A stretch of DNA of 64,000 bases from Vulcanimicrobiales bacterium (GCA_038231455.1 JBBRLI010000004.1:32001-96000); one strand, 5' to 3'; numbered from the stretch's first letter, positions 443 to 58,360 are shown. The notes: generated by a model not told the origin, from the sequence alone. Numbers and translations are program-made.

Positions 443-1540
443 TCAGGTCTTTGCGATCGCGAAGGGGATCCCCAAACGCGCGGCCATCGTTTCGAGACCC
501 GCCCACACCTTGATGTGGACGGGCACGCCGTTTCGCCGATTGAATTCCGTTTTCTCGTGTTCGATCTCCCCGGCGACGTAGATGCGATCCTGGCCCGGCG
601 CCTTGGCCGAATCTTTGAACGCGCGCAGTTCGGTGTCCATATCCGCGCGGAAGCGATCGAGATCGCGAAAGCGATCGATGCGAAACGCCGCAAACCAGTG
701 CGAGATCGCACCCGCGGTCGGCGGGTCGCTCGGGAGCGGCAGGCCGGTGCCAAACGCCCCGCCCGTCATCACCCCACATAAGATGTCGACGAGAAGTCCA
801 AGGCCGAAGCCTTTATGGCCGCCGCCGTCAACGCCCAGGCCCCCGAGCGGGAGCAGGGCGCCTTGAAGCGCCGCTTTGGGATCGAGGGTTTCCACGCCGT
901 TCTCGTCGATCGCCCAACCCGGGTTGAGCGGCTTGCCTTTGCGCTCGTTCACTTCGATCTTGCCGCGCGGGACGGTCGTCGTCGCAAAGTCGAGCACGAA
1001 CGCGGGCTCGTTCATCGCTGGAACGGCAAAGGCGAGCGGATTCGTGCCGATCGTCATGCCGCGTCCGTAGGTGGCTGCGCCGAGCCGCACGGAATTCGTC
1101 GATGCGATGCCGACCATGCCGTGATCGAGCGCCAGCATCGCATAGTACCCGGCGATCCCGTAGTGGTTCGAATTGCGCACCCCGCCGAACGCTGCGCCCG
1201 AAGCACCGGCTTTTGCGACGATCGCCTCCATCGTGCGCTTTGCGGCCGGGTGCCCAAGACCGTTGCCGGCATCGACCACAAGCGAGGTCGGCGTCTCGCG
1301 TACCGTGCTCACCTCCGGCGTGGCGCTCAGCGAGCCGTCTTGAATCCGCTTCACATAAAACGCGTCCAGGCGGGCGACGCCATGCGATTCAACGCCGCGT
1401 AGATCGGCGGTCACGAGCACCTCGGCGACGATCTGCGCATCGGCCTGCGCGACGCCAACCGTCGTGAGGGCAGCCGCGACGAACGACCGCAAATCGGCTT
1501 CGCCTGCAAGTCGGTAGTCGGTCGTGAGGACTTCGGCCAT
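443..1540 (-). CDS. Ldh_2 family (malate/L-lactate/ureidoglycolate-type) NAD(P)-dependent oxidoreductase
   Basis: Motifs ADLRGVESHG, RNSNHYG, GTNPLAF, LDFATT, GHKGFGL; start placed at MAEVLTT (ATG 1540). Confidence 0.9.
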   Translation of the reverse strand: MAEVLTTDYRLAGEADLRSFVAAALTTVGVAQADAQIVAEVLVTADLRGVESHGVARLDAFYVKRIQDGSLSATPEVSTVRETPTSLVVDAGNGLGHPAAKRTMEAIVAKAGASGAAFGGVRNSNHYGIAGYYAMLALDHGMVGIASTNSVRLGAATYGRGMTIGTNPLAFAVPAMNEPAFVLDFATTTVPRGKIEVNERKGKPLNPGWAIDENGVETLDPKAALQGALLPLGGLGVDGGGHKGFGLGLLVDILCGVMTGGAFGTGLPLPSDPPTAGAISHWFAAFRIDRFRDLDRFRADMDTELRAFKDSAKAPGQDRIYVAGEIEHEKTEFNRRNGVPVHIKVWAGLETMAARLGIPFAIAKT

Positions 1541-1613
1541 CAAGGCGGATTCTGCGAGCGGAGCACCAGCCCCCCAAGAGGCACGGGGGCGCGCGAGCAG
1601 GTAGCTACTCCCG

Positions 1614-3017
1614 GTGAACGATCTGCGCACGGCGCTCTCGGGCGTCGTCGACCCCGCCGGGATTCTCAGCACCGCCGAAGACCTTATCGCCTACGGATTC
1701 GACGGGACATTTTACCAGAACACCCCGCCGCTCGTCGTTCTCCCCACGACCACCGCGCAAGTCGTCGCGATCCACCAGTTCGCTCATGCCCGCCGCATCC
1801 CAATCACGCCGCGTGCGATGGGCAGTGGTCTTTCGGGCGGCGCAATTCCGCTCGGCGGCAGCATCGTGCTGGGCGTTGCGCGGATGAACCGCATTATCGA
1901 GATCGATGAAGTCAATCACGTTGCGGTGGTCCAGCCGGGCGTGATCAACGCGCATCTACAAACCGAAGTCGAAAAGCGCGGCCTCTTCTATCCGCCCGAT
2001 CCCTCGAGTCTCAAACAGTCGGCGATCGGTGGAAACGTTGCGGAGAACGCGGGCGGCGCACGCTGCCTCAAATACGGCGTCACCGGCGACTACGTGCTCG
2101 CGCTCGAAATCGTGCTGCCGGACGGCACGCTCATCCGCACCGGCGGCAAGATGGTCAAGAACGTCACCGGCTACAATTTACGCGCACTCTTCACGGGCTC
2201 CGAAGGCACGCTCGGCACGATCACCGAGGTCACGCTCAAACTCATTGCCAAGCCGAAGTTCGCGCGCATGGCCGTCGCGGTTTTCGATCGGATTGCCGAT
2301 GCAGCGACGTGCGTGACCGCGATCATGTCGACCGGCATCGTGCCGACGTCGATCGAGATGCTCGACAATCTCACGATGCGCTGCGTCGAGGCGGCAAAGC
2401 CGATCGGCCTTCCACTCGATGCCGATGCGATCTTGATCTTTGGCGCCGACGGCAACTACGAAGAGATCGTCAACGCAGAAGTCGCCACGATCGCAACGAT
2501 CGCTCGCGAACACCGCGCGCGCGATGTTACCGTCGCGCAGAACGCTGAGGAATCCGAACGGCTCTGGAACGCGCGCCGCTCGATTTCTCCCGCTCTCGCG
2601 CAGCAGCGGCCGAACAAGCTCGGCGAGGACATCGCAATTCCGCGCAGCGCGATTCCGCGCATGGTCGAACGCTGTCGCGAGATTTCCGTGAAGTATACTT
2701 TGCCGGTGCCCGTCTACGGTCACGTCGGCGACGGCAACCTGCATCCGAACATCCTCTGCGATAAGACCGATAAAGAAGAAATGCTGCGCGTGCGTGATGC
2801 GGCGCGCGAAATCTTCGAGGCGGCGATCGAACTTGGCGGCACGCTCTCGGGCGAGCACGGGATCGGAATGCTCAAAAAGCAGTTCATGGAACTGGACCTC
2901 GGTACCGACGCACTCGAACTGATGCGGAAAATCAAAAACGCGATCGATCCGCTCGGCATCATGAACCCCGGTAAAGTGTTCCCCGAACCCGGCGGTGCGG
3001 ATGCGTTTACGCTCTGA
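1614..3017 (+). CDS. glcD: FAD-linked oxidase, GlcD/D-2-hydroxyacid dehydrogenase family
   Basis: FYPPDPSS, IGGNVAENAGG, KYGVT, GSEGTLG, GHVGDGNLHP, SGEHGIG, NPGK. Confidence 0.85.
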   Translation: MNDLRTALSGVVDPAGILSTAEDLIAYGFDGTFYQNTPPLVVLPTTTAQVVAIHQFAHARRIPITPRAMGSGLSGGAIPLGGSIVLGVARMNRIIEIDEVNHVAVVQPGVINAHLQTEVEKRGLFYPPDPSSLKQSAIGGNVAENAGGARCLKYGVTGDYVLALEIVLPDGTLIRTGGKMVKNVTGYNLRALFTGSEGTLGTITEVTLKLIAKPKFARMAVAVFDRIADAATCVTAIMSTGIVPTSIEMLDNLTMRCVEAAKPIGLPLDADAILIFGADGNYEEIVNAEVATIATIAREHRARDVTVAQNAEESERLWNARRSISPALAQQRPNKLGEDIAIPRSAIPRMVERCREISVKYTLPVPVYGHVGDGNLHPNILCDKTDKEEMLRVRDAAREIFEAAIELGGTLSGEHGIGMLKKQFMELDLGTDALELMRKIKNAIDPLGIMNPGKVFPEPGGADAFTL

Positions 3018-4228: not shown

Positions 4229-5140
4229 CTAGAGCGTCGTCTTGCCGAGCGCGGAGAGAATCAATTCAACGGCAAGGATCGCCGTTTGATTGTGCGAGTC
4301 GAGGATCGGATTGATCTCGGTGATCTCGAGCGATCCGAGCGTCTTCGATGCGGCGATGACTTCCATCATGAGATGCGCTTCGCGATACGTGATCCCACCG
4401 CGCACGGCCGTTCCGACGCCCGGCGCTTCGCTCGGATCGATGCCATCCATATCGAAGGACACGTGCACGGAATTTTCGCCGTCGGAGACGAGGGCGATCG
4501 CCTCATCGATCACGCGCGACATCCCCATCCGATCGATGTCGGCCATCGCGTACGCCTTGACGCCAAGCTCGCGAATCGCGCGCTTTTCACCGGCATCGAC
4601 GTCGCGTAGCCCGATCAGCACGCTGCGCTTGGGATCGACGTGATGGTCTTCGATCGCAAAGGCGAGCGGCATGCCGTGAACGTTGCCCGAGGGCGAGGTC
4701 ATCGGCGTATTGATATCGCCATGCGCGTCGACCCAAATCAAGCCGGGACGCTTCTTGCGACCGCGCGCAACGCCCGCGATCGTGCCCATCGCAATCGAGT
4801 GATCGCCGCCGAGCACGAGTGGGAAACCGCCCGCAAGGATCGATTGCTCGACGACTCCGGCGAGTTCTTCGCAGACCGCTTTAATGATCGGGAAATACTT
4901 GGCATTGGCAACTTCCGCACTCGCCGACTCCGGGACCGGGACGCGCAGGTTGCCGTGATCCGTCGTTGAGATGCCGAGCGCCTCGAGCGACTCTTTGAGG
5001 CGCGCATAGCGGATCGCCGAGGGCCCCATGTCAACACCGCGCCGGTCGGCGCCCAAATCCATCGGAACGCCGATCACATCGACGTGCGCGATGCGCGGTA
5101 CGGGTTCGCCAGCCGGCGTGAGGCGCGGTAAAGTTTCCAT
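4229..5140 (-). CDS. rocF: arginase
   Basis: [34 protein letters not shown]. Confidence 0.93.
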
Positions 5141-5146
5141 TCTTGC

Positions 5147-6337
5147 CTATTTCGTGGGCGCGGCGATCCGTCCCGGTTCGGTGACGTCGAGCGGCTCTTT
5201 GGTAACGCCGGGTTTGGCTTCGGCGATGCTCGCCTTCATCGGGATAAAGTGCACGAGCAGGACGCGGATCATCGCGGCAATCGGCACCGCAAGAAACATC
5301 CCGCCAATGCCAAGCAGCTCCCCGCCGATGAGGATCGCGATCACCACCCAGAGTGGCGAGAGGCCGACCGAGTCGCTCACGATCTTCGGCGCGATGAAGT
5401 GGCCTTCGAGTTGGAAGATCGCGATGAAGGCGATGGCAACGTAGCCCGCATGCACGAACGCGGCCTGCGAGACGCCGTCTTGGAAGAGGGCGAGCAGCAC
5501 CGAAGGCACGAAACCGACGACCGCGCCGACGTATGGAATCACATCGAGCAGACCCGCGAAAACGCCGATGAGCACCGCGTATTTGATGTGAAAGAGCAAC
5601 AGCACGATCGTGATGCAAACACCGATCGTCGCGCCGACGGTGAACTGTCCACGGATGAACCCGCCGAGAACTTTTTCTAAGTCGGCGACGACCGCAAGCG
5701 TCTTGGGCCGCGCTTTGACCGGGATCGCCGCGATCGCGTAGCGCTTAAGGTTTTCCGCATCGAGCATCATATACGCCGAGAGCACGGGGATCACGATGCA
5801 CGTCGCAACGAGGGCAACGGTCGAGAGCAAGAGGCCAACGGCTTTGGTCGCCGCCTCACCCGCATAGTGCTGCGTAAATTTGCTTGCTTCCGTCGGCAGC
5901 GTGATGATGTATTCGCGGACACTCAGCGGAAAATGACGGAAGACGGGATTTTCCGGATTGCTGATCCAGGCGGTCGCATTCTTTTCGATCGTCGGATAGT
6001 TCGCAACCAAATCTTTGATATCGGTTGAGAGCGGCGGCACGATCACGGCGATTCCGATCCCGATCACCAGCGCAATACCAAAATAAACGATGCCGATCGC
6101 AGCGCCCAGCGGCATCCGCTCGTTCAGGCGCCGCACGAGCGGATACACGACGTACGTGAAAAAAATCGCACCGATGATGATGACGGCAACCGACGAAACT
6201 CGCGAAAGAAACGAGAGCACGTTGATGAGCATGAAGGCACTTAGCGCAATGAGCGCGAGGATCTTCAGCGCATACGTCACGCGTCGCTCGCCGCGGGAGA
6301 TCGGGCGCCGCGGCCGCGCGACGGTCTGCTTTATCAT
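5147..6337 (-). CDS. AI-2E family transporter
   Basis: Multi-TM; IPYVG, QLEGHFIAPKIV, GGMFLAVP motifs; ATG 6337 overlaps the upstream stop (ATGA). Confidence 0.88.
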   Translation of the reverse strand: MIKQTVARPRRPISRGERRVTYALKILALIALSAFMLINVLSFLSRVSSVAVIIIGAIFFTYVVYPLVRRLNERMPLGAAIGIVYFGIALVIGIGIAVIVPPLSTDIKDLVANYPTIEKNATAWISNPENPVFRHFPLSVREYIITLPTEASKFTQHYAGEAATKAVGLLLSTVALVATCIVIPVLSAYMMLDAENLKRYAIAAIPVKARPKTLAVVADLEKVLGGFIRGQFTVGATIGVCITIVLLLFHIKYAVLIGVFAGLLDVIPYVGAVVGFVPSVLLALFQDGVSQAAFVHAGYVAIAFIAIFQLEGHFIAPKIVSDSVGLSPLWVVIAILIGGELLGIGGMFLAVPIAAMIRVLLVHFIPMKASIAEAKPGVTKEPLDVTEPGRIAAPTK

Positions 6338-6789
6338 GAGAGCTTCACCGGGATCGCTTTTCGTAAGACTCCGACGAGCGGCGGCACGATTGCGGCGCCT
6401 GCGGCCCGGAGCACCTCGGAGTACCACGTTTTCTTGTAGCCGTCATCGAGGTCGAGCACGGCCATAAACACCCGATGACGCGTGGCGATCGTTTGGCTCC
6501 ACGCGCGGAGCCGATCCGCCGCACCCGGCCGCTGCGCTTCGATTTCGGCGAGCACCGCCGCGTCATCCGCGCCATGCGCGTCGACGATGGACATGAAGCG
6601 GCGGTAGCTCAACCCCGCCGTCTTGAGAAATTCCGCGTCGATCGGACTCTGGCCGTAGAGATACACGCCAAGCGTCCCGGCACGCAGCGCGCGCGCCTTG
6701 TCGATGAAGCGCGGGAGCCACTGGACGCCTCCCACGGCTTCGGTCCAACGACGCGGCGGACCGGAACGAAGATCGGGTGCAGCTTGCAT
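6334..6789 (-). CDS. DUF5069-like protein
   Basis: PDLRSGPPR...GGVQWLPRFIDKARA...GTLGVY..SPID resembles DUF5069 as I recall it; start at MQAAPDL. Confidence 0.7.
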   Translation of the reverse strand: MQAAPDLRSGPPRRWTEAVGGVQWLPRFIDKARALRAGTLGVYLYGQSPIDAEFLKTAGLSYRRFMSIVDAHGADDAAVLAEIEAQRPGAADRLRAWSQTIATRHRVFMAVLDLDDGYKKTWYSEVLRAAGAAIVPPLVGVLRKAIPVKLS

Positions 6790-6846
6790 CCTCGACGCTT
6801 CGCGGATGCTGGAGGCCAACCCGTCCGAAAGGCGTAGTGGACTGCG

Positions 6847-21990: not shown

Positions 21991-23839
21991 ATACCTGAAC
22001 GGCGTGCTTGGCGAGATGCAGCGTCACGGCGCGATGCGCGAGGGCCATAATCGTGAGCATCGGGTTCACGCCCGATGCGAGCGGAAAGACCGATGAATCG
22101 GTGACCATGAGACCTTCGATTCCGTGGACGTGTCCGAACGGATCGGTAACGCCGCGCGTCGGGTGGGCGTTCATCCGCGCCGTTCCCATTTGGTGCGCGG
22201 AGAAGACGGCAAGTCGATTCGCTTGCGTGCCGCGCTCCGCGATGGCACGGAAGAACGTCGTGCGCTCGTCTTCGCTTGCCTCGCGCCGAAGTTCGAGCGG
22301 GTCGGCATGTAAGGTCGCGACGCGTTCTGCCCCGGCGGCAAAAGCCAGCGTCGCGCAACCGATCAGCGCTTGGATCATGCGTTCGCCATCATCTGCGGCG
22401 ACGGCATAGTGGATCTCGTTGCGATCGTCGAGGCCGATCGTCCCTTCACCGCGATCGCGCGTGAGCACGATGAGGAGCGCGTTCTTCCGTGCGCCATGCA
22501 TGTCCGCGGCGTGACGCGCTTGGCTGCGCCAAGGAAGGGCGAGCGCCATCAGGCCGGGATGCGCGGGCGCCGCTTCGATCGTTGCACCGTAACCGTCATC
22601 GATGGAGCTGAATCGGTCGCAGAGTGCCGTTTGCATCGCTCCGTTCCACGCGTCGACGGGTTCAGCGAATTCAGCGACGAGGGCCGTCGTTGGATGCAGA
22701 TGCAAATGACGGCCGAGGTGCGATGATTTTACGCCGCTGCGCGCAAGAATTCCGGGCGTACGCAACGCCCCGCCGGCGATGATGACGAGCGGCGCTTCGA
22801 TCGTGAGATCGCCCGCTTCCACGGCCGTGACGCGGTTGTGGTCGATCCGCACGCGATCGACCGTGGTGTCGGCGTAAAGCGTCGCGCCTGCTTCTATGGC
22901 ATCGGCGAGATACGTTTGCGTCGTCGATTGTTTTCGGCCGTACGCGCAGCCGAAACCGCAGTAGCCGCAGCCTTCACCGCATCCGCTCGCGTTGCGTGGA
23001 ATCGCCTTCGATTCCCAGCCGAGCACGCGTGCACCCTCGACGATTGCCGCGTTGTTGCGATTGTGCTCGTGCGATTGCGCGACGCCGAGTCGCGCTTCGA
23101 CGGATGCGTATGAGGCTTGCAGTTCGTCTGCCATCGCCGGATAGCCGATGGCCTCGGCCCACTGCTGTGCGACGTGCGGCGTAAGGCGCAGCGACGTGCA
23201 CCAGTTCACCGTCGTCCCGCCGCCGACGCACGCACCGGCCAGAATCGAGACCGCGAGATCCTCGGTTGCGGTTAGCCCCGCATCGAGATACAAATCGGCA
23301 AACGACCGCGCTTCGCTCTGCAACGCCGCCGTCGTATTGGCAACCGGTCCCGCCTCAAGAATAACCGTGCGCAAACCGGCGCGCGCGAGGAGCGCCGCGG
23401 CCACACCACCGCCGGCCCCCGATCCGACGACGACGGCATCGGCGTGAATCGTTCCGCGAACGGTGCTTGTGGGAGGCGGGATGATAGGACTTACGCGTCG
23501 ATCCTCGCGTGGACCGGGGTAGCCGATCGTCGGCCAAAGCGGATTCGTTCCCGCTTCATCGGTTGCGGCATAGGCGGCGAAGAGCGCGAGCCGTTTGAAC
23601 GCTTGAAAACCCGTGCGCAAATCGGAGATCGACGAATCGCAAAGCGCACGCAGTGCCGCCTCGCGCGCCGGTCGCGGGAGTGCCATCAGCGGCGCGATGA
23701 GTCGCGCGAAGAACTGTAACTTCGATCGGCGATGAGGCGCGAGCCGCGCGAACGCCTCTTCCATGAGCTCCGTGCCGCGCGCGACATCGGAACCGCCGGG
23801 CGCAAATGTGGCTACTATTGCTGCGAGCGTGCGCGTCAT
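21989..23839 (-). CDS. GMC family oxidoreductase (long-chain alcohol oxidase-like)
   Basis: VVVGSGAGGG, GGGTTVNW, CxGCGxCxxGC, SAHQMGT, GVNPMLT. Confidence 0.88.
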   Translation of the reverse strand: MTRTLAAIVATFAPGGSDVARGTELMEEAFARLAPHRRSKLQFFARLIAPLMALPRPAREAALRALCDSSISDLRTGFQAFKRLALFAAYAATDEAGTNPLWPTIGYPGPREDRRVSPIIPPPTSTVRGTIHADAVVVGSGAGGGVAAALLARAGLRTVILEAGPVANTTAALQSEARSFADLYLDAGLTATEDLAVSILAGACVGGGTTVNWCTSLRLTPHVAQQWAEAIGYPAMADELQASYASVEARLGVAQSHEHNRNNAAIVEGARVLGWESKAIPRNASGCGEGCGYCGFGCAYGRKQSTTQTYLADAIEAGATLYADTTVDRVRIDHNRVTAVEAGDLTIEAPLVIIAGGALRTPGILARSGVKSSHLGRHLHLHPTTALVAEFAEPVDAWNGAMQTALCDRFSSIDDGYGATIEAAPAHPGLMALALPWRSQARHAADMHGARKNALLIVLTRDRGEGTIGLDDRNEIHYAVAADDGERMIQALIGCATLAFAAGAERVATLHADPLELRREASEDERTTFFRAIAERGTQANRLAVFSAHQMGTARMNAHPTRGVTDPFGHVHGIEGLMVTDSSVFPLASGVNPMLTIMALAHRAVTLHLAKHAVQV

Positions 23840-23920
23840 CGCGGGACGAATTCGGGCTGACGATTGACGACACCCCGTTGTGCTCTAGGTGGTTCTCCCC
23901 ATTTTAGCGAAATGTGGCCG

Positions 23921-26900
23921 ATGAAACGGTATCGGGTTTCCGCTCTCATTCGCGCGTCGCAAGTGATTGTCGCGCTGCTCGTCCTGGTGTGTGTGCGCGG
24001 AAGCGCAACGGGTCGAGCGACGGTTTACGTTGGGTCAAGCGCCACGTTTTTGCCGGGCACACCGGTGGCGGCGGAGTTGTACGGTTCGCAAGACTCCGAG
24101 CCCGTCGACGTGGAAGTGACGGCGACGCGAATCGACGCGGTGACCGCCGTACGTGTGCTTGAAAGCAGAAGTGCGTCAGAAGATGCGTTCAGTTCGAAGC
24201 ACCCGCTGCGACGATTGCGGATTCGCATACAGCCCGGCTATTACCGCCGCAACACCGTGCCGCTCGGTGAGCTGCCGATCGGACTGTACGGAATTCGCTT
24301 CGTCTCGCCCCGTTATATCGCGCTGCAAGTTATCAATGTAACGACACTCGGCATCCTGAGTACGGGACGCACGAGCTCGATCTATGCCGTAACGATCGAT
24401 CTGCAGCACGTTCAAACATCGCAGCGACGCAAGCGTAAGGACTGCCGCTGGACCGGACTTTGAGACCCTCCAGTCGGTCGATGCCTTGGGTAGCGCGGTC
24501 CTTCCCATTCCTCGCGACGAACGACACCGATTTATCGTAGCACGTGCGGCTGATGGTTCAACCGCAATCGCAGAAGGTACCCGGTATGGAGCGTCGGCGG
24601 AGAATGCAGAAACGAGCTACGTTCAAACGGATCGGCCGATCTATCATCCCGGCGATGTCGTGAATTTCCGTGCGATCGTTCGCGGTGGCGAAGCCCCGCA
24701 CTACACCGTGCCGACCGGGGATCGTTCGATCGCCTTGATTGGGCCGAATGGATCGAGGCTGACCGTAAAACACGCCGCCTTCGATGCGTTCGGTACGCTT
24801 GCAGCGGACTTTGTTTTGCCTGCAGATGCATCGCTTGGCGACTACCGCATCTCAACCCACGACGAGTCGTACAGTCAAAGCGGTCATTTCGCGGTCCAGG
24901 CGTACAAGAAGCCGGAGTATCTCCTGCGTGTCGCTCCGAAAAGCAAGTACGTTCTCAGCGGGCAAACCGCACATCTGCACGTCCAGGCGCGCTATTTTTT
25001 CGGAAAGGCCGCGGTTGGAATGACCGTGCATTACACCGCGTCCTTTCCGATATGGTATTGGTATCGACGCTACAATTCGGGCCTGCGATTCGATGGCAAC
25101 GGCCTCGACGAGAGCGCCAGTCGGCTAGCGGATATCGAGGGAACCCTCAAAACCAACGCTGAGGGCAACGTCGACATCGCCATACCGAGCGTTCACCGTA
25201 ATGACGAACGTCTTGTCCAGATCGCAATCGACGCGCGCGACGATTCTTTCCGAACGGTCACCACAAACGAAACGCTGATTTTGGTACCGGCCTCGTTCTT
25301 CGTGAGCATCGAGAATCATCAGTGGTATTCATCCCTTGGTACGCCGCTCGTCTTCACGCTCCGGGCAACCGGCTATGACCGCGGACCGCGACCCGGTACG
25401 GCGATCGATATCACCGTGCGACGGCGCGAAGCGAATCGCGAGCAAACGATCGTCGCACGGGAGCACGTCGTCACGGAGCGTGACGGATCGCGTGCGTATT
25501 CATGGACGCCCGATTCTCCCGGTTTTTACACGATCGACGCTCGCTCGACCGATGCAGCCGGTAATGCGGTCACGACCTCCACCAGTGCCTGGGTGGGCGA
25601 GAGCGGGTATGCATTTCCGTACCGGTTCGAACAACTCAGCGTTATCCCGCAGCGCGAGGCGACGGCTCCCGGTGAAAACGCCGGGGTTCTCGTCACCTCA
25701 CCGCACGGAGACACGGACGCGATCGTCGATATTCTTGCGCCAGGCTACGAGCACACGTACGTGGTTCACTTGGACGGCGTCGTCTCGACGCTTGCGATCA
25801 CCCCGCCGCCAGACGCGGCGAAATTCGATGTCTCCGTCGTCGTCCCGTCGGCACAGGGGGTGACGGTGGGACGGGCGACCCTCCGCGTCAAGCCCGATCC
25901 GCGAAGGCTCAGCGTCAGTGTCACCTCTGAACGTTCGACGTATCAGCCTGGCGATCGCGCGCGTTTCCACATCGAGGTTCGCGATTCAAGTGGCCGCCCC
26001 GCTCGCGCGCAGGTCGCACTCGCCGTCGTCGACGATGCGATCTTTGCACTTACGGGGAGCGACAGCCTCGATCCATACAACCATTTTTACACCAACGCCA
26101 ACGTGTATCACACGGAGAATGCATCGTGGCGTGGGCTCAATTCACCGGAAGGAACGTACCTCGCCGGTGCGCTTCGGACGATCGGACGCATAACGTCGCG
26201 CCAGAACGGTTTCTCGCCGTCATCGACAGCCGATGCGTACTCGGTGGGTTCCGCAAGTGGCGCTGCGCCCGACTTCAGCCAGCTTCGGTCGGATTTCCGT
26301 GATACGGCGTACTGGACGCCGTCCGTCGTAACAAGCGACAAAGGCAGCGCTGAGGTCACCTTCACGTGGCCGGATTCGCTGACGTCCTATTCGGCATCCG
26401 GGATCGCGCTGACGACCGCTACGGACATTGGGTCGGGCGTGGGGCACGCACTGGTGACGAAAGACTTTCTCATCCGCCTTTCTTCACCGCGTTTTTTGCG
26501 AACCGGCGATGAGTCGCGACTCACGGCGATTGCGCAAGGTCCACGCACGGCGACGAGCGCGCGCCTCCGGCTTTCCGCGCCAAGTATCGGACCGGCCGAT
26601 GTCTCAAAGACGGTCGCTTTTAATCGCGCGGCTTCCGCCACGACGCATTGGGACGTCTCCGGTCGCGCGATCGGAACCGCGACGCTGCGCCTCGCTGGAA
26701 CGAGCGGATCGCTGCGCGATGGATTACTCACAACGATGCCGATCGAGTCGGCCGGCATCGCGCAGCACATTCGCGACGCGGGCGCGCTCCCGTTATCGAA
26801 CAGCTCGGCCTTCAACCTTCCGCGCGGTGCGGACGCCGGTAACGTGCGGGTCGATATCTCGCCGAGCTACGTTGGCCAGCTCATCGCGGACGCGCATTTA

Positions 26901-30515: not shown

Positions 30516-31130
30516 TTAGAGTTTGTAAGCTGCTTTGAGATCTTTCATCGCCTGCGTCAGGATGATGTGATAGTCCTGATCGGCGGTGCGGCCGTACTTC
30601 GCATCGATGTCGTCCATGATCTTGGTGTGGATCGGGTGCGACACGAGATTGTCGAGCATGAACTCAACATCGAAGTTGCCGTCTTTGGTCACGCCGGCGG
30701 TGTAGAGAGCGGCCGAGAGGCCTTTACCGTCTTTGGCATCGGCCTGCGGGGCCGGAAGAGCGATCTTCGCTTCGGTGACGATCTTGAGCGCGTCGGCGAC
30801 GACAAAATCAAACGTCTTGACGAACTGGCCGATTTTCTCGGCGCCGTACTTGTCGGTGAGGCTTTTGAGTTCGGCTGCGGTCAGGTCGCCGGCAAGCGAC
30901 TTCACGAGCGTCGTCGTTTCGAACTTGCTGGGGCCGCCACCGGCGACAACCATGGAGACCGTGAGCGGGAGATTCGGCTTGCCGACATAGCTGACGGCAT
31001 CGCTGAAGCGGGCCTTCGGAGCGTCCATCTTCATGCCGCCCATCGCATCAGCGGCGAACGCCGGAAGCGACGAGGCGAGCACGCCCAGACCCAGAAGCGC
31101 GGCGGCCGAAGCCGTGCGGAAATTGAACAC
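30516..31130 (-). CDS. secreted hypothetical protein, Met-rich N-terminus, His/Asp-containing helical C-terminus
   Basis: AAGGAG SD then GTG 31130; signal peptide ending AFA; DAMGGMKMD; SHPIHTKIMDDID, DYHIIL. Confidence 0.8.
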   Translation of the reverse strand: MFNFRTASAAALLGLGVLASSLPAFAADAMGGMKMDAPKARFSDAVSYVGKPNLPLTVSMVVAGGGPSKFETTTLVKSLAGDLTAAELKSLTDKYGAEKIGQFVKTFDFVVADALKIVTEAKIALPAPQADAKDGKGLSAALYTAGVTKDGNFDVEFMLDNLVSHPIHTKIMDDIDAKYGRTADQDYHIILTQAMKDLKAAYKL

Positions 31131-31186
31131 GAGGGACTCCTTCATAGTGGGGGAGTGGTGGCCCGGCGGTGCCGATGCCCGCTCAA

Positions 31187-37600: not shown

Positions 37601-37980
37601 TCCCAGTCGGTCGCAAAAGGCGCGCGGTATTTGACTTTGGTCCAGCGATTCGGATTGACGTGCAATTGGAACGTGGCCGCACCTTTGGGACACAGCGTTC
37701 CGCCGTTGATCGGACTTGCCGGATTGCCCTCGATGTCGATGATCTTCTCGTTCTTTGAGTAAATCATCGTGCCGCAGCCGACGGCGCAATACGGACACAC
37801 GCTGGGCGTGGCTTTGGCATCCTTGATGCGCGAGTGCAGCGTCTGCGAGCGCTTCGAGAGTACGTTCGGTAGCGGCGCGATCCGTTTGCCGAGGGCACCG
37901 GCGGCGCGCGCGAGCAGCGAAGTCAGATCGAGCGGCGGACCCTGCGTTTTTGCCATTGTTTCTGATTCGACGACAGACAA
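34696..37980 (-). CDS. fdnG: selenocysteine-containing formate dehydrogenase alpha subunit (Mo/W-bis-PGD), Sec at TGA 37378-37380
   Basis: CPYCAVGC...LCPKG; ENQARI-U-HSSTVPGLG reads in frame across TGA into the next ORF; ALRGHASIQG; GGAG SD before TTG 37980. Confidence 0.92.
37349..37365 (-). promoter_or_regulatory. bacterial SECIS hairpin
   Basis: 12 nt after the UGA: GUCCCA-GGUCU-UGGGAC, with the CAGGUCU apex seen in the E. coli fdhF SECIS. Confidence 0.85.
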
Positions 37981-38004
37981 AGCGACTCCATGCCGGGAAT
38001 CGTC

Positions 38005-40731: not shown

Positions 40732-42467
40732 GCTCGGCCGACCAGTGCGCGCTTGCGCGCGACAAATTCCAGGACCCCATCGAGCGGTCGCGTGTTGAGG
40801 ACGTCGTCTTTGGTCAGCCACGCGCGGCGCGCTTGCCCGACCGCAAAAGCGACGTTGTCCAACTGCGTGGCACCGTGCGCGTCGCTATCGCAGGCAAACG
40901 TCACCCCGAACTCGCGCGCCCGGCGCGCAAGTGCGCTTGGCAAATCGAGCCGGTTGGGCTGGCCGTCGATTTCGAGCGCGGTCCCCGTTCGTGCGGCGGC
41001 CGCGAAAACGGCATCGTAATCGAATTCGTATCCCGGGAAGCCGGAGACCTGACGTCCCGTCGGATGGCCGATGATCGAGACGTACGGGTTTTCGCAAGCG
41101 CGGATCAAGCGGGCCGTCATCTCATCGCGCGATTGGTTGGTATTCGCGTGCACACTTGCTATAACGATATCGAGTTCCGCAAGGATGCTATCGTCGTAGT
41201 CGAGCGCGCCGTCGGGCAGGATGTCGACCTCACTCGAGCAGAGCGTGCGAATGCCGTAACGCGTCCCGATCTCCGCGATCCGCGCACGCTGTTCGCGCAA
41301 CTCGCTTGGGTCGACGCCGTAGCGCGACCCGCGGCCCCACGAGTGGTCGCTGATCGAGTGGTAAGCGTAGCCACGCTTTGCGGCGGCTTCGATCATCGCT
41401 TCGAGCGTATCGGCGCCGTCGCTCCAGGTGCAATGCATGTGAAAGTCGCCGCGCAGATCGCCCAGCTCCACCAAGGTTGGAAGCGTTCCGGCACGCGCCG
41501 CCTCGATCTCGCCGATCCCCGAACGCAGTTCGGGCGGAATGTACGCCATCCCAAGCGCCGTGTAGACCTCGGCTTCCGTGCGGCACGTGGTGGTCGTCCC
41601 CGCGCGCAAGTCGACGATACCGTTTTCACTCAAGCGCAGATCCGAGCGTACGGCAAACTCGCGGAGTTGGATGTTGTGTTCGCGGCTGCCGGTGAAGTGT
41701 TGCAGCAAGTTGCCGTACAGATGCGCTTGCAGCACGCGCAGATCGATCTGCAAGCCGCCACTCAGCCAAATACTTGCCTTCGTCTCGCCTTCTGCCAGCA
41801 CGGCCTCGGCTCCGGGATATGCCACGAACGCTGCGATGACGGCTGCGGCGTTTGCCGAGGTACAGATGATGTCGATATCGCCGACCGTCACCTCCGCTCG
41901 GCGCAGACTTCCCGCGTACGTGAGGTCGGCGGCATCGGTCTTCTCAGCAAGATACGCGATGAGCGAGCGAGCGATTGGCAGTGCCTTGCCGATCGGCGTC
42001 CGTGTTTGACGGCCTTTGTATGCCAGCAGGCCGCGCTTCATGTTTTCGATGGACTTCTTCCCGAGGCGCGGGAGCGAGGCGACGGCTCCCGATGCGATGG
42101 CGGCCTCAAGATCCGGCAAAGACGCCACGCCCAACTGCTCGTAGAGCGCCATGGCGGTCTTCATCCCAACCCCGGTGACACCTAAGAGATCGATGAGCGT
42201 CGGTGGGTATTTTGCGCGGAGCTCTTCGAGGTAGTCGCACGTGCCGGTTGCCGCAAGGTCGGCCACGCGCCCAGCGATCGTTTTGCCGACGCCGTTAAGG
42301 TCCGTGAGGGTTCCGCTTGCGATCAGATCGACCACCGGCGCTGCATTCTCAATCGCATCGGCGGCGCGCTCGTAAGCCATGAATTTGAAAAACGGCTCGC
42401 CGGCAAACTCCATGAGCATGCGCATCTCGGTCAAGCGCTGTGCGATCTCGGCGTTCGAATGGGTCAC
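40728..42467 (-). CDS. polX: DNA polymerase X / PHP-domain exonuclease
   Basis: AGSLRR, GDIDI, HFTGSREHN; PHP motifs HMHCTWSDG, GHPTGR, DSDAH. Confidence 0.93.
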   Translation of the reverse strand: MTHSNAEIAQRLTEMRMLMEFAGEPFFKFMAYERAADAIENAAPVVDLIASGTLTDLNGVGKTIAGRVADLAATGTCDYLEELRAKYPPTLIDLLGVTGVGMKTAMALYEQLGVASLPDLEAAIASGAVASLPRLGKKSIENMKRGLLAYKGRQTRTPIGKALPIARSLIAYLAEKTDAADLTYAGSLRRAEVTVGDIDIICTSANAAAVIAAFVAYPGAEAVLAEGETKASIWLSGGLQIDLRVLQAHLYGNLLQHFTGSREHNIQLREFAVRSDLRLSENGIVDLRAGTTTTCRTEAEVYTALGMAYIPPELRSGIGEIEAARAGTLPTLVELGDLRGDFHMHCTWSDGADTLEAMIEAAAKRGYAYHSISDHSWGRGSRYGVDPSELREQRARIAEIGTRYGIRTLCSSEVDILPDGALDYDDSILAELDIVIASVHANTNQSRDEMTARLIRACENPYVSIIGHPTGRQVSGFPGYEFDYDAVFAAAARTGTALEIDGQPNRLDLPSALARRAREFGVTFACDSDAHGATQLDNVAFAVGQARRAWLTKDDVLNTRPLDGVLEFVARKRALVGRA

Positions 42468-42505
42468 GACGAGGACTGGGTTCGCCCAAGACTAAGAGTC
42501 GTCCC

Positions 42506-43618
42506 ATGTTGCGCACCGAGCGCCGGCGTCTCGACCCGGACATCCTCAATCTGCCGGTCGAAAAAATGCGCGACGGCTACTACGCTGATACCTATTTCAA
42601 TCGCGCGCGGGAAATCCTGAACGCCGACGGCCACCATCCGCGCGTTCGCATGCAAGTCTTCCAGCGCAGTACCGGCATTCTGTGCGGAATCGACGAGGCG
42701 ATCGCGATTCTCAAGCTGTGCTCGGGGACGGCGAATGTCGACGGTACGTGGTCGGACGGCTGGAGCAAGCTGGCGGTGCGCGCGCTCTACGACGGTGACG
42801 GCATCGAACCGTACGAAACAGTGATGACGATCGAAGGCGACTACGCGCTCTTTGCACACTTGGAAACCGCGTATCTGGGTGTGCTCTCGCGCCGCACGCG
42901 CATCGCGACGAACGCGCGCGCCATCGTGGATGCAGCCGACGGAAAAGAAGTGCTGTATTTCCCCGCGCGCTACGACCACCATCTCGTGCAGACCGGCGAC
43001 GGCTATGCTGCGTATATCTCCGGGGCCCTCGGCGTTTCGACCGATGCAAACGCCGAATGGTGGGGCGCAAAAGGGATGGGCACGGTCCCGCACGCGCTGA
43101 TCGCGGCATATGGCGGCGACACGGTACTTGCATCGAAGAAATTCGCGCAGTACATCGACCCGTCCGTCAACTTGATCACGCTCGTGGATTTCGAAAACGA
43201 TTGCGTCGGCACGTCGCTTGCGGTCGCGCGCGAACTCAAAGGGCGGCTGTGGGGCGTACGCCTCGATACCTCCGGGACCCTCGTCGACAAATCGATCTGG
43301 CCGCAGATGGGCACGTTCAAACCGACCGGCGTAACGCCGCAGCTCGTGCGCAACGTGCGCGAAGCGCTCGACGCCGAAGGTTTCGGTCACGTGAAGATCG
43401 TCGCGAGCGGCGGCTTCAACGCCGCGCGCATCATGGAATTCGAAGCCGATCGCGTGCCGGTCGATGCCTACGCCGTCGGCAGCGCGTTTTTCGATAACGC
43501 AGGCAAACACGATTTCACGGCGGACATCGTTGCAATCGAACAAAACGGCGCGTGGGTGGAGTGCCACAAAGTCGGGCGTCCGGAACGTCCGAGCACGCGT
43601 CTTTCGGTTGTCGAGTAG
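42506..43618 (+). CDS. nicotinate/quinolinate phosphoribosyltransferase family protein
   Basis: YADTYF, LETAYLG, GTVPHAL, GVRLDTS, IVASGGF. Confidence 0.85.
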   Translation: MLRTERRRLDPDILNLPVEKMRDGYYADTYFNRAREILNADGHHPRVRMQVFQRSTGILCGIDEAIAILKLCSGTANVDGTWSDGWSKLAVRALYDGDGIEPYETVMTIEGDYALFAHLETAYLGVLSRRTRIATNARAIVDAADGKEVLYFPARYDHHLVQTGDGYAAYISGALGVSTDANAEWWGAKGMGTVPHALIAAYGGDTVLASKKFAQYIDPSVNLITLVDFENDCVGTSLAVARELKGRLWGVRLDTSGTLVDKSIWPQMGTFKPTGVTPQLVRNVREALDAEGFGHVKIVASGGFNAARIMEFEADRVPVDAYAVGSAFFDNAGKHDFTADIVAIEQNGAWVECHKVGRPERPSTRLSVVE

Positions 43619-45252: not shown

Positions 45253-45813
45253 CTACGCCGGAGTCGCTTGCGACGCTGCCAGCTTTTCGAGCAGTGCGCG
45301 ATTGAACATGGCCAGATCTTGCGGGTTGCGCGCGGTGACCCAGTTGCCGTCGGTGACGACGGGCTGGTCGCGGTACAGGCCGCCCGCGTTGCGGATATCA
45401 TCTGCGATCGCGGCAAAACCGGTGAGCGTGCGGCCGCGGCAGATTTGCGCGGAGATTAGGACCTGCGGTCCGTGCCCGATCGCAAACGTCGGCTTCTTCG
45501 CGGTATCGAATTCCTTGACGAAACGCTGCACGTCTTTGTTCATGCGCAAGAATCCGGGCGAGGTGCCGCCCGGGATGAGGAGCGCATCGAAATCATCGGC
45601 CGTGACGTCGGCGACGAGCTCCTCGGCTTTGACCGAGTTGCCTTCGTCGAGACCGCGTTTGCCGCGGATTTTGGCTTGGGCTTTTTCATCGATTCCGACG
45701 ATCGTGACGATCGCGCCGGCTTCTTCAAGCGCGCGGCGCGGCTCCATCAATTCCGCTTCTTCGAAACCATCACCGACCAGCGCGGCGACTCGCTTTCCAT
45801 CTACTTGATCCAT
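45253..45813 (-). CDS. PfpI/DJ-1 family protein lacking the catalytic Cys
   Basis: GFEEAEL, DALLIPGG, AIGHGP (canonical AICHGP), VVTDGNWVTAR.PQDL. Confidence 0.88.
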   Translation of the reverse strand: MDQVDGKRVAALVGDGFEEAELMEPRRALEEAGAIVTIVGIDEKAQAKIRGKRGLDEGNSVKAEELVADVTADDFDALLIPGGTSPGFLRMNKDVQRFVKEFDTAKKPTFAIGHGPQVLISAQICRGRTLTGFAAIADDIRNAGGLYRDQPVVTDGNWVTARNPQDLAMFNRALLEKLAASQATPA

Positions 45814-45857
45814 GTCGGGCTCGATTCAGAACGCAGGGCACGAAGCCCCCCCACGTC

Positions 45858-48414: not shown

Positions 48415-48746
48415 ACTTCGCGCGTCTCGGGACGCGACTCGCGCGCGACGCTGATCTGCGTGCCCTCCACACGGACATCGAACACCTCGACGGTCGAGTA
48501 GTCGCCGAGCGTCATTTTGCCGTCGCTCAGCCGATAGCACCAGGCATGCCACGGGCACGTCACCGTCCCGCCTTCGATGTAGCCCTCGGAGAGCGGACCG
48601 CCTTGATGGGGACACGTGTTGTCGATGGCGTGAAATGTGCCATCGATGTTGAAGAGACCGATCTCGCGGTCGCCGACCATCACGATTTTCGCGGTGCCGG
48701 GCGCGATTTCGGCAACGCTTGCGACGGGAACGAACTCATTTGACAC
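48411..48746 (-). CDS. Rieske-type [2Fe-2S] ferredoxin
   Basis: CPHQGGPLSEG...CPWH. Confidence 0.9.
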   Translation of the reverse strand: MSNEFVPVASVAEIAPGTAKIVMVGDREIGLFNIDGTFHAIDNTCPHQGGPLSEGYIEGGTVTCPWHAWCYRLSDGKMTLGDYSTVEVFDVRVEGTQISVARESRPETREV

Positions 48747-48780
48747 AGGGCGCGCACTTCGCGCGCCGGGGAGGCACGCC

Positions 48781-49059
48781 TTGTTAACCGATTACCGCGC
48801 CTGGCTCGATTCCGAACTCAAACTCTTAGGCAACGCGAGCCACCATGCGTACTCGTTCGGCCAAGCCAATATGGCCAAACGCGCGATCGAACAACTCGAC
48901 GCGGAACTCGAAAAATCGACCTACGTTGCGCTCGACCCGGACCTGGCGCGACGTGCGCTGACGGCGCTCGAGATGGTCGCGCAAGAGGCGACCGTCCTCG
49001 ATCCCGCACTCGATGATCTGCGCACGGCGCTTCGAGCTTCGCTTGCACCGCGTCCGTAA
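48781..49059 (+). CDS. hypothetical helical protein
   Basis: GGAGG SD then TTG 48781; 92 aa. Confidence 0.65.
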   Translation: MLTDYRAWLDSELKLLGNASHHAYSFGQANMAKRAIEQLDAELEKSTYVALDPDLARRALTALEMVAQEATVLDPALDDLRTALRASLAPRP

Positions 49060-50221: not shown

Positions 50222-50250
50222 TTGTCCTGCGGTGCTCGATCTGGTATGAT
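50222..50250 (+). promoter_or_regulatory. sigma-70 promoter of rpsO
   Basis: TTGTCC-N17-TATGAT with extended -10 TG. Confidence 0.7.
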
Positions 50251-50614: not shown

Positions 50615-50645
50615 GGACCGGCGAAGAAACTCGCCGGTCTTTTTT
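50615..50645 (+). terminator. intrinsic terminator
   Basis: GGACCGGCGA-AGAAAC-TCGCCGGTCT-TTTTT. Confidence 0.85.
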
Positions 50646-51089: not shown

Positions 51090-51222
51090 CGTCCGAGGGC
51101 CGGCTCCCAAGGCATTTTCCGCGGATTCTCCGAATCGGCGCTCGTTCTATAAGAATAAACGATTGAACGAAAAAAACGCGTCCGCCCGGCGTTTTGACCG
51201 AGGGGACCACTAGGAGAATCTG

Positions 51223-55806: not shown

Positions 55807-55815
55807 TTGGCCGGC

Positions 55816-56271: not shown

Positions 56272-56278
56272 CGCGAAA

Positions 56279-56368
56279 GCCTCGTTTTCGTGGCAGCGAT
56301 TCCTTTGGCGAACCGAAAGAGAGGAAACTTTCTTTCGCGGTCGCCTTGGGAAGCTCTTCCGCCGAGGC
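56279..56368 (+). other. extended stem-loop, candidate structured ncRNA
   Basis: Nested pairings around a GAAA tetraloop at 56324-56327 (see findings). Confidence 0.45.
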
Positions 56369-56376
56369 AAACGAAC

Positions 56377-56667
56377 CTAAGGATTACGTGGTGCGAACCC
56401 TCGGTAGGCGGTCAAGCCGACGATTTGGACCTCGAGCATCCCGTTCTTCACGAGGGGCAATCCCGCGAGGATCTCGTGCACGTGCTCGGCCGAATCCGCC
56501 TCGATCATCATCGCTGCGCCCGAAACGTCGGTGCGGCCCCAGATCTGGCGCACGTGAAACTCCTTATGGAGCCGGCGTGCCGCCTCGGCCTCGCCTTCCA
56601 GTAACGGGGCGAAGTCGGCCTCGGAAAACGACTCGAGCTTGCGGCGGAGGAGCGCGAAAAACTGCAT
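56377..56667 (-). CDS. muconolactone delta-isomerase-like (dimeric alpha/beta barrel) protein
   Basis: EAEAARRL...RQIWGR...EADSAEHVHEILAGLPL pattern. Confidence 0.7.
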   Translation of the reverse strand: MQFFALLRRKLESFSEADFAPLLEGEAEAARRLHKEFHVRQIWGRTDVSGAAMMIEADSAEHVHEILAGLPLVKNGMLEVQIVGLTAYRGFAPRNP

Positions 56668-56746
56668 TGAGCGTTTTGCGTTCACAATCGCGCCTGCGCC
56701 TGTTCGGTGCCGGGGATCGACACCACGTCGTCCAACCCTTTCTGCA

Positions 56747-58360
56747 ATGGCTTTCGATTCGCTCTCGGCATTTGTCGCAGCACTCCGTTCCGCAGGCGAG
56801 CTCGCGGAGATTTCCGCGCCCGTCGATCCGCATTTGGAAATCGCCGAAATTACCGATCGCGTGGTGAAGGCGGGCGGTCCGGCGCTGCTCTTTACCAACG
56901 TCGTCGGTTCCAAATTTCCGGTGCTGACCAATCAGTTCGGCTCGGAACGACGCATGGCGATGGCCTTTGGCGCCGACTCGATCGAAGCGGTCGCAAATCG
57001 CGTACGCAGCGCGATCGATTTGAGCGTGCCGAAAACGCTCGGTGCGAAGCTCGGTAAAGCATTCTCGCTCACCTCGCTTGCCAGTGCAATCCCAAAGACC
57101 GTTGCGAACGGATCGTGCCAAGATGTCGTTCTCGAAGGAGACGATGTTGATTTACTTGCGCTGCCGGTTCTCACGACGTGGCCGCTCGATGGCGGACCGT
57201 TCGTCACGCTGCCGCTCGTCTTTACGAAAGACCCCGTGAGCGGGACGCAAAACGTCGGCATGTATCGCGTGCAGCGGTACGACAAGACAACCACCGGCAT
57301 GCACTGGCAACGCCACAAACAAGGTCGCGCGCAAGCCGCGAAATGGGGCCGCCGCGTGCCGGTTGCCGTGGTGATTGGCGCCGATCCCGCCGTCACGTAC
57401 GCCGCTACCGCGCCGCTCCCGCCGATCGTCGATGAGATTTCGCTTGCCGGATTTCTGCGCGGCAAATCGGTGAAGATGGTCAAGTGCAAAACGATCGACA
57501 TCAAAGTGCCGGCGGATGCGGAGTTCGTGCTCGAAGGCTACGTCGACAACGACGACTTGCGCGTCGAGGGCCCGTTCGGCGACCACACCGGCGTCTACAG
57601 TCTCGCCGATTTGTATCCAACCTTTCACGTGCAGTGCGTCACGCACCGCGCGAAGCCGATCTACGGCGCAACCGTCGTCGGCAAACCGCCGATGGAAGAC
57701 GCGTGGCTCGGCAAAGCGACCGAACGTATTTTCTTACCCCTCTTGCAGATGGTCGTGCCGGAGATCGTCGATTACAATTTGCCGGTCGAGGGTGGGTTTC
57801 ACAACCTCGCAATCATCAGCGTGAAGAAATCGTATCCGGGTCAAGCAAAGAAAGTGATGAACGCGCTCTGGGGACTCGGGCACATGATGATGCTCACGCG
57901 CTGTTTGCTCGTCGTCGATGACGACGTGGACGTTCAAGACGTGCGCAGCGTCGTTTGGTTTGCGCTGAACAACGTCGATGCGTCGCGGGATCTGGTAGTC
58001 ATGCCCGGACCCGTCGATGACCTCGACCACAGCGGTTCGTATTTACCGTCGATCGGTTATAAGCTCGGCATCGACGCGACACGAAAGACCGCCGCCGAAG
58101 GCTACGCACGTGAGTGGCCGCCGGATATCGTCATGGACGATGCGACGCGTACGCGCGTCGATGCGCGCATGCGCGAACTCGGACTCGATACGATTCTCGC
58201 GCGTAAGTGCGCGCCCGACGCGTGGTCGGGGCAGGGCCCGGCAGCCCTCGCACGTCTGCTAAACGCGCCTGCAATGGATCCAAACGCGCAACCGCCGCGC
58301 AGCGCCGCAGCACTTGCAGCTCTCGCTGCCAAGGCACTCACCAGTAGCGATACGGCATGA
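56747..58360 (+). CDS. UbiD family decarboxylase (menaquinone biosynthesis, MqnL-type)
   Basis: EIAEITDR, WPLDGGPF, NVGMYR, EGPFGDHTG, GKPPMED, GIDATRK. Confidence 0.9.
   Translation: MAFDSLSAFVAALRSAGELAEISAPVDPHLEIAEITDRVVKAGGPALLFTNVVGSKFPVLTNQFGSERRMAMAFGADSIEAVANRVRSAIDLSVPKTLGAKLGKAFSLTSLASAIPKTVANGSCQDVVLEGDDVDLLALPVLTTWPLDGGPFVTLPLVFTKDPVSGTQNVGMYRVQRYDKTTTGMHWQRHKQGRAQAAKWGRRVPVAVVIGADPAVTYAATAPLPPIVDEISLAGFLRGKSVKMVKCKTIDIKVPADAEFVLEGYVDNDDLRVEGPFGDHTGVYSLADLYPTFHVQCVTHRAKPIYGATVVGKPPMEDAWLGKATERIFLPLLQMVVPEIVDYNLPVEGGFHNLAIISVKKSYPGQAKKVMNALWGLGHMMMLTRCLLVVDDDVDVQDVRSVVWFALNNVDASRDLVVMPGPVDDLDHSGSYLPSIGYKLGIDATRKTAAEGYAREWPPDIVMDDATRTRVDARMRELGLDTILARKCAPDAWSGQGPAALARLLNAPAMDPNAQPPRSAAALAALAAKALTSSDTA

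Follow-up and report, generated by a model that had tools for sequence, protein, structure and literature searches.

The sigma-H factor (SigH) of Bacillus subtilis has the promoter consensus RnAGGAwWW-N11/12-RnnGAAT, and the leaderless promoters of Actinobacteria and Deinococcus carry a -10 element, TAnnnT, 6-7 nt before the start codon. For Clostridioides difficile, the SigH promoters of one published table (41 promoters, Table 3, PMC7438776) conform to GG-N18/19-GAA, with printed ends 9-12 nt past GAA and a legend according to which mapped start sites are marked; for this species, only 15 possibly leaderless genes are reported. In Sporomusa sphaeroides, the SigH motif AGGA-N17/18-GAAT is reported to mark 322 start sites (16% of the total; PMC12456013), which sets a precedent for a large SigH regulon. 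In the accessible parts of the literature searched, we found no description of the promoter or sigma specificity of Eremiobacterota, and a promoter predictor is reported to return incomplete lists for 75.5% of the genomes of this phylum (10.64898/2026.09.23.753901). Here we consider a stretch of 64,000 nucleotides from a Vulcanimicrobiales bacterium (GCA_038231455.1; hereafter the window, G000:C4:32001-96000), which belongs to an Eremiobacterota metagenome-assembled genome (MAG; assembly G000) of 3.71 Mb, 106 contigs and 61% G+C. An earlier note, made from the sequence of the window, had pointed to a recurrent two-block motif, RGG-N17/18-NGAA, just upstream of start codons lacking a Shine-Dalgarno (SD) sequence, and had proposed that a SigH-like factor uses it to drive a broad, partly housekeeping regulon. 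We find that the motif holds a fixed position and spacing across the genome, is conserved in relatives, and has a core, AGG-N19-GAA, which is strongly avoided elsewhere. On these sequence grounds it is very probably a genuine, conserved and heavily used promoter.

Position, spacing and conservation of the element

The gene set used throughout (3271 genes) is the product of a home-made, simple codon-usage scorer, and every start-codon count given below depends on that caller. The element was searched for under a loose definition, that of the earlier note with 9-13 nt to the start, and a strict one, GG-N17/18-CGAA at 9-11 nt before an in-frame ATG or GTG. An iterative position weight matrix refinement locked onto exact CGAA, and direct counts of variants were used in its place.

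Genome-wide, the strict form occurs 131 times as against 18.6 at control distances, which bears out the anticipated enrichment in position and spacing over the background. Among the spacings scanned only N17 (73 vs 10.4) and N18 (86 vs 10.8) rise above the controls. The loose motif precedes 173 of 8003 in-frame candidate starts (2.2%) as opposed to 21 of 7040 and 9 of 3322 out-of-frame pseudo-starts (0.3%). The spacer between CGAA and the start peaks at 9, 10 and 11 nt (113, 132 and 90 in-frame ATG/GTG codons; 37, 36 and 24 in the out-of-frame controls), and at this distance CGAA is the most position-enriched of all 256 tetramers (335 vs 161). In 596 genes with unambiguous starts, GAA and CGAA peak at -13/-14, apart from the GGAG peak found at -12 to -9 in other genes. 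When the profile is anchored on CGAA, G climbs to 50-55% at two positions 19-20 nt before the C. Variants in the first base (AGAA, GGAA, TGAA) and the second base (CAAA, CCAA, CTAA) are enriched 2.5-5-fold (CCAA 3.3-fold), and the enrichment is lost on replacement of the last A; the fraction of T after GAA at leaderless sites is 0.20.

Starts preceded by the strict motif are indeed poor in SD sequences, with an SD core at 6 of 133 as against 151 of 574 other unambiguous starts. They comprise 90 ATG, 40 GTG and 3 TTG codons, and 63 of these 133 genes have a divergent upstream neighbor, compared to 910 of 3160 genes overall. A minor class of starts is instead preceded by TAnnnT, which peaks 6-7 nt before them (77 and 67 vs about 35); its A and the last A of CGAA are thereby equally distant from the start codon. 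A short, fixed distance from the -10 element to the start and the lack of an SD, both seen here, are features of leaderless genes, and the element is likely to give rise to leaderless or near-leaderless messages.

All nine sites listed in the earlier note were recovered in the window by reading back the sequence, with the spacers given for them, as were the two variant sites ahead of a phosphoribosyltransferase (PRTase) gene and UbiD. The sites are given below together with two further candidates and, for contrast, the canonical promoter of rpsO; ORF denotes an open reading frame.

1538..1573, minus strand: Ldh_2 promoter and start; GGG 1573-1571, N17, AGAA 1553-1550, 9 nt, ATG 1540; Ldh_2 domain from residue 15
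5138..5174, minus strand: arginase (rocF) promoter and start; GGG, N17, CGAA 5154-5151, 10 nt, ATG 5140; domain from residue 19
6787..6822, minus strand: DUF5069 promoter and start; GGG, N17, CGAA 6802-6799, 9 nt, ATG 6789; domain from residue 11
23837..23875, minus strand: GMC oxidoreductase promoter and start; GGG, N18, CGAA 23854-23851, 11 nt, ATG 23839; Pfam match
23887..23923, plus strand: promoter and start of a 180-aa ORF ahead of the A2M-domain ORF; AGG, N18, CGAA 23908-23911, 9 nt, ATG 23921
31128..31164, minus strand: additional candidate, absent from the earlier list; GGG, N17, TGAA, 10 nt, GTG 31130; 204-aa protein without a Pfam match
37954..37989, minus strand: additional weak candidate; TGG, N18, CGAA, 9 nt, ATG 37956; the encoded protein carries a molybdopterin-oxidoreductase Fe4S4 domain
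42465..42505, minus strand: PolX promoter and start; GGG, N18, CGAA 42484-42481, 13 nt, GTG 42467; domain from residue 4
42472..42508, plus strand: PRTase (QRPTase_N-like) promoter and start; AGG 42472-42474, N17, CTAA 42492-42495, 10 nt, ATG 42506
45811..45848, minus strand: PfpI/DJ-1 promoter and start; GGG, N17, TGAA 45828-45825, 11 nt, ATG 45813; domain from residue 7
48744..48781, minus strand: Rieske protein promoter and start; AGG, N17, CGAA 48761-48758, 11 nt, GTG 48746; domain from residue 4-5
50222..50250, plus strand: rpsO canonical sigma-A promoter; TTGTCC-N17-TATGAT, with TGn before the -10
51110..51148, plus strand: pnp promoter and leader; AGG 51110-51112, N18, CGAA 51131-51134, 9 variable nt, conserved GTTC.. 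from 51144 (predicted start site)
56712..56749, plus strand: UbiD promoter and start with a variant -10; GGG, N17, CCAA 56732-56735, 11 nt, ATG 56747; domain from residue 11

The loose motif lies ahead of 8 of the 53 genes called in the window. At seven of the proposed starts (Ldh_2, arginase, DUF5069, PolX, PfpI, Rieske and UbiD) the Pfam domain begins 4-19 residues downstream. The site that had been assigned to an A2M gene calls for a correction: the motif and the start are present, and the start opens the 180-aa ORF, which has no Pfam match, rather than the ORF with the A2M domain. The PolX spacer of 13 nt falls outside the main range of 9-11 nt. At the candidate start at 31130, GGAG also occurs in the spacer, making an SD-led start possible, and the TGG ahead of the start at 37956 ranks last among the -35 forms when these are graded by avoidance, as described below.

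Two divergent pairs share their upstream DNA. The GMC gene and its neighbor have in common 81 nt with two back-to-back motifs; the start codons of PolX and PRTase lie 38 nt apart, with overlapping promoters, such that each promoter sits inside the 5' end of the other gene. Many related genomes show the latter arrangement, in which CAT directly adjoins the GG of the PolX promoter.

The element is also found ahead of genes that have no start codon. RGG-N17/18-NGAA occurs within 80 nt upstream of 15 of the 46 tRNA genes of the genome (one of which is a tRNA-SeC gene on contig C33), as against 1 in the antisense orientation and a mean of 1.9 (maximum 7) in shuffles, with a shortest distance of 10 nt between GAA and the tRNA; TTG-N19-21-TAnnnT precedes 8 of the 46. 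The proposal of a broad, partly housekeeping gene set is in line with this, since the motif serves tRNA genes as well as pnp, arginase, PolX and PfpI.

Relatives of the pnp and PolX loci, nearly all from MAGs named Eremiobacterota or Vulcanimicrobiota, mostly retain the element. Of 60 loci related to pnp, 50 carry GG-N17/18-CGAA, and its distance hardly varies even though the flanks and the upstream gene itself differ. Among 49 distinct orthologous pnp promoters anchored on CGAA, an A precedes GG in 82%, a base which the search did not demand; the spacer is variable, and a conserved block (GTTcA...) starts 10 nt past the last A, which is the position taken by the start codon in the leaderless genes. 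The pnp loci (n = 80) comprise too few independent genes for a spacer histogram. At PolX, GG-N17/18-CGAA is kept in 43 of 75 related loci, and in others the position of CGAA is taken by GGAA or TGGTATGTT; the replacement of CGAA by TGGTATGTT indicates that promoter classes interchange. In the upstream regions of PolX in L188, L255, L256, L258 and L259 (around position 570-600) the promoter class turns over and the leaderless position is kept.

For a wider comparison, 400 kb were taken from each of four relatives, representing three classes: G010 (another genus), G122 (another family of the same class), G002 and G058. The leaderless CGAA peak recurs in three of the four, namely G010 (36 vs 13.9), G058 (25 vs 8.5) and, in shifted form, G122; with the home-made caller, G002 (57% G+C) gave no clear peak (5 vs 3.2). 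In G122 the spacer between CGAA and the start peaks at 11-13 nt rather than 9-11 nt.

Regarding the surroundings of these sites, the A2M-type gene is apparently split on the plus strand at 23921-28364, with the 180-aa ORF (23921-24463) followed in another frame by a 1292-aa ORF (24486-28364) with MG2, bait-region, A2M, TED and MG10 domains; a frameshift or an assembly error may be responsible, or there could be two genes. Between 50222 and 51223, rpsO (which has a sigma-A promoter, an SD and a GTG start) is followed at about 50617-50645 by a hairpin and T run resembling a terminator, then by panD and pnp; the last starts near 51223 and is preceded by its own motif and some 80 nt of leader.

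Avoidance of AGG-N19-GAA across the genome

A scan of all 1024 pairs of a 2-mer and a 3-mer, at spacings N14-24 and on both strands, revealed a feature of the element that is new in this follow-up. The two most avoided words in the scan are TT-N20-CCT (0.42 of expectation, z -32.7), which is the reverse complement of AGG-N20-AA, and GG-N19-GAA (0.70, z -27.6). The core AGG-N19-GAA is avoided more than any other two-block word of the genome, with 264 copies observed and 1189 expected (0.22, z -26.8); the effect falls off to 0.46 at N18 and 0.64 at N20. Control words (GG..CGAC, CC..CGAA, GG..TTCG) give ratios of 0.94-1.11 in coding sequence, and no avoidance of TTG..TAnnnT words is seen in the genome.

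The same measure provides a base-by-base account of the preferences of the presumptive reader. In the -35 block AGG (0.22) is followed by GGG (0.54), CGG (0.81) and TGG (0.92), and in the -10 block GAA (0.22) is followed by GTA, AAA, TAA and CAA (0.45-0.58). The last A is essential, with GAC, GAG and GAT at 0.91-0.99; the flanking bases matter little, the ratios across the four bases being 0.17-0.26 for GAAx and 0.17-0.29 for AGGx. By these counts, the functional core is AGG-N19(18)-GAA, a refinement of the earlier RGG-N17/18-NGAA.

Avoidance depends on location. Genes contain 62 copies in sense and 88 in antisense orientation as against about 430 and about 545 at control spacings (about 0.15); likewise, GG-N18-CGAA stands at 0.67 (sense) and 0.58 (antisense) of the mean for spacings of the same phase in 2.9 Mb of coding sequence. 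Copies in upstream intergenic regions are not reduced (41 vs about 45-53), and 35 of the 264 copies lie at the leaderless distance from a start as opposed to 6-9 at control spacings. The avoidance extends to all four relatives, with ratios of 0.19 in G010, 0.32 in G122, 0.54 in G058 and 0.63 in G002. Only two outgroups were used, a Clostridia MAG (226 kb, with a SigH homolog of 276 bits) and a Caldisericota MAG (199 kb), and neither shows significant avoidance (0.87 and 0.92, respectively).

Sigma factors and the probable reader of the element

The genome encodes 23 members of the sigma-70 family: one RpoD, two SigB/F/G-like proteins, one or two of the FliA/WhiG type, one SigH and proteins of the extracytoplasmic function (ECF) type. 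The two of most relevance here are:

G000:C2:227408-228052: sigH; TIGR02859 (spore_sigH) 341.6 bits (cut-off 294.8) and NF006148 361.6 (cut-off 208)
G000:C1:433172-434383: rpoD; TIGR02393 401 bits (cut-off 354) and NF006666 566 bits, just below its cut-off of 572

The SigH ortholog whose presence the earlier note had anticipated is thus encoded in the genome. Its best relative of solved structure is 3mzy, an 'RNA polymerase sigma-H factor', and it lies at the end of a run of genes on one strand: gltX, cysE, cysS, rlmB, a 95-aa ORF and sigH. This is the upstream order of Bacillus, gltX-cysE-cysS-(mrnC)-rlmB-(yacP)-sigH. In Bacillus sigH is followed by rpmG-secE-nusG, and these are not found downstream of sigH here, where the opposite strand encodes an uncharacterized 122-aa protein and UbiX. 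Spo0A, to which SigH is typically linked in spore formers though not in all its carriers, was not found in the genome (best match 71 bits, cut-off 200).

SigH scores over the cut-off in 144 of 151 genomes of the phylum, with matches in all 70 genera; this tally takes in G000 and one unpublished genome (G116), on which the claim does not depend. Its identity is 97% in G010, 94% in G122, 77% in G002 and 76% in G058, and that of RpoD is 86% in G010 and 77% in G122; SigH is thus the more conserved of the two within the class. By way of side observations, PNPase identity is only 66% in a locus from G122's contig, and the SigH homologs of four Clostridia MAGs (G155, G156, G158 and G159) score 159-276 bits, all under the spore_sigH cut-off, in comparison to about 335-350 in Eremiobacterota. 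Three genomes titled Armatimonadetes or Armatimonadota (G151, G152 and G153) have SigH at coordinates identical to those in G092, G005 and G149, which are Eremiobacterota-sample genomes, suggesting that their public phylum labels are outdated.

Canonical promoters form a separate set in this lineage. Near-consensus TTGACA-N17-TAnnnT lies ahead of the 16S rRNA gene in G010, G122 and G058 (that gene was not found in the G000 MAG with a primer-site pattern or RF00177). The promoter of sigH itself is of the sigma-A type (TTGACG-N17-TATAAT), as are those of rpsO in the window and several tRNA genes, and such promoters are enriched on the sense strand of intergenic regions. As rRNA, rpsO and sigH are served in this manner, the AGG/GAA element constitutes a second promoter class.

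Which sigma factor reads this second class is a matter of weighing likenesses. We favor SigH with moderate confidence, given that both the core and the spacing of the element match the published SigH promoters, which upholds the comparison drawn in the earlier note: AGG(A) forms the -35 core, and GAA occurs with the spacing of GG-N18/19-GAA in C. difficile and of AGGA-N17/18-GAAT in Sporomusa. The T after GAA and the A/T-rich flanks of those promoters are not seen here.

It is unlikely, yet deserves consideration, that the promoter is leaderless as proposed and is read by an alternative sigma factor other than SigH, of the ECF or the SigB/F type. ECF-type proteins make up most of the 23 family members, and ECF promoters (GGAAC-N16/17-CGT) likewise combine a G-rich -35 with a -10 starting in CG at a similar spacing, with some ECF groups using a CGAA -10. 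One ECF-like gene, L102, even has GG-N18-CGAA 12 nt before its own ATG, ECF sigma genes being preceded by their own motif. However, it is the only ECF-like gene to carry the motif, and the -35 block of the element has no ECF-type AAC after GG, there being no base preference after AGG. Moreover, the avoidance of the motif across three classes requires that its reader be conserved across them, which SigH is (76-97% identity); the core, the spacing and the distance from GAA to the promoter end all equal those of the published SigH promoters. L102 was rejected as a candidate reader, having no ortholog in the four relatives that show avoidance (best identity 36%, with one relative lacking any match); the other ECF factors were not compared one by one.

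A reading by the primary factor RpoD/SigA, with AGG-N19-GAA as a promoter form adapted to G+C content, appears quite improbable. To its credit, the GG would fall at the place of the G of TTG (-33/-34), and -11, the base that counts most in the -10 element, would be occupied by the final A of GAA; CGAA, GGAA and TGGTATGTT interchange at a single position in orthologous PolX promoters; and housekeeping genes such as the tRNAs and pnp use the motif. Against it, clear TTGACA-N17-TAnnnT promoters serve rRNA, sigH, rpsO and tRNA genes in the same lineage, RpoD is here an ordinary, Firmicute-like protein, the motif has no preference for T at -12 or -7, and TTG..TAnnnT words are not avoided while AGG-N19-GAA is. 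That the motif is no promoter at all, but a translation signal in the mRNA or a site recognized by a restriction system or some DNA-binding protein, seems to us very remote. A constant distance to the start codon would suit a translation signal too, but such a signal would account neither for an AGG block held constantly 19 nt upstream, nor for the motif's occurrence before tRNA genes, nor for the copy conserved some 90 nt before pnp. Restriction systems can bring about strong avoidance of words; bipartite restriction sites, however, have gaps of 5-8 nt, far shorter than 19 nt, and upstream of genes the word is retained in a set orientation, as opposed to its removal elsewhere.

Returning to SigH, several observations weigh against it or against parts of the picture. 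The assignment is one of likeness, and this likeness extends neither to the T of Firmicute GAAT nor to the A/T-rich flanks; SigH is encoded by practically all genomes of the phylum and offers no presence/absence contrast to tie it to the motif; about 16 ECF-type and other alternative sigma factors are encoded, of which L102 alone was compared for conservation in relatives; and the Clostridia genome tested has SigH (276 bits) yet shows no avoidance of AGG-N19-GAA. Additionally, the PolX promoter of some relatives has TGGTATGTT, an extended -10 of the sigma-A type, at the position of CGAA. As for the leaderless sites, the gene starts are the output of a home-made caller, about 19 of the 131-133 strict sites are expected by chance, and 43 of the 133 have a co-directional gene ending less than 40 nt upstream.

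On balance, the account that we find best, though with a moderate degree of assurance, is that of a promoter class read by SigH, with leaderless starts and a purging of chance copies. RNA polymerase with a Firmicute-type SigH would most likely recognize AGG-N19(18)-GAA, with the last A of GAA standing in for the -11 A of an ordinary -10 box. Transcription is expected to begin about 10 nt past this A, and in well over 100 genes the predicted start site coincides with the start codon's own A or G; their messages would hence be leaderless or have a leader of at most 1-3 nt, with no need for an SD. Elsewhere the same promoter would serve tRNA genes and genes with a leader, pnp among them. As six bases at a fixed spacing seem to be sufficient, and such a word arises easily at 61% G+C, selection appears to have removed about four-fifths of the chance copies from both strands.

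If this is correct, an entire, mostly uncultured phylum would gain a workable promoter model and improved start-codon calls. It would also mean that a Firmicute sigma factor associated with sporulation has a broad housekeeping role in a lineage that lacks Spo0A, would tie an alternative sigma factor to leaderless gene expression, and would provide an unusually clean example of selection acting across a whole genome against spurious promoters. The spacing-specific avoidance test can be run without annotation and could reveal active promoter classes in other uncultured lineages.

Comparison with SigH, leaderless and other promoter systems

With the Firmicute SigH promoters the element shares the AGG(A) -35 core, the GAA(T) -10 core, the GG-N18/19-GAA spacing and the distance from GAA to the promoter end; the sigma gene, too, is alike in its equivalog-level match, its conserved gene order and its own sigma-A promoter. 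It differs in that the T of GAAT and the A/T-rich flanks (GAATww, AGGAwww) are not used, and in its leaderless distance to start codons and its use by tRNA genes. The genome, moreover, is not that of a Firmicute and lacks Spo0A, and the bare core is strongly avoided in it, unlike in the one Clostridia genome tested.

The leaderless promoters of Actinobacteria and Deinococcus resemble those described here in the fixed distance from the -10 to the start, the absence of an SD and the use of ATG or GTG, and their TAnnnT form exists here as the minor class. The majority class, in contrast, has (C)GAA with an AGG -35, which points to an alternative rather than the primary sigma factor.

In terms of avoidance, that of sigma-70 hexamers is reportedly much weaker than that of AGG-N19-GAA. 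Selection against spurious sigma-70 -10 motifs has been described previously (Froula and Francino 2007, PMC1939733) and, as far as that account goes, has in common with the present case that promoter-like words are under-represented away from true promoters; what differs is that here a two-block word of the alternative-sigma type is affected, down to 0.22 overall and about 0.15 in genes.

We tentatively suggest, as a possibility that falls a little short of even, that SigH has become a second housekeeping sigma factor in Eremiobacterota, with a six-base promoter that forms so readily and is so active that about 80% of chance copies have been purged, hundreds of transcripts starting at the start codon, tRNA genes and pnp among its targets, and a stronger constraint on SigH than on RpoD within the class. 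Compared with the known systems, and as judged from sequence, the element would then represent the Firmicute SigH promoter class in another phylum, with a core cut down to six bases, a leaderless placement and a housekeeping use, and strongly selected against elsewhere in the genome.

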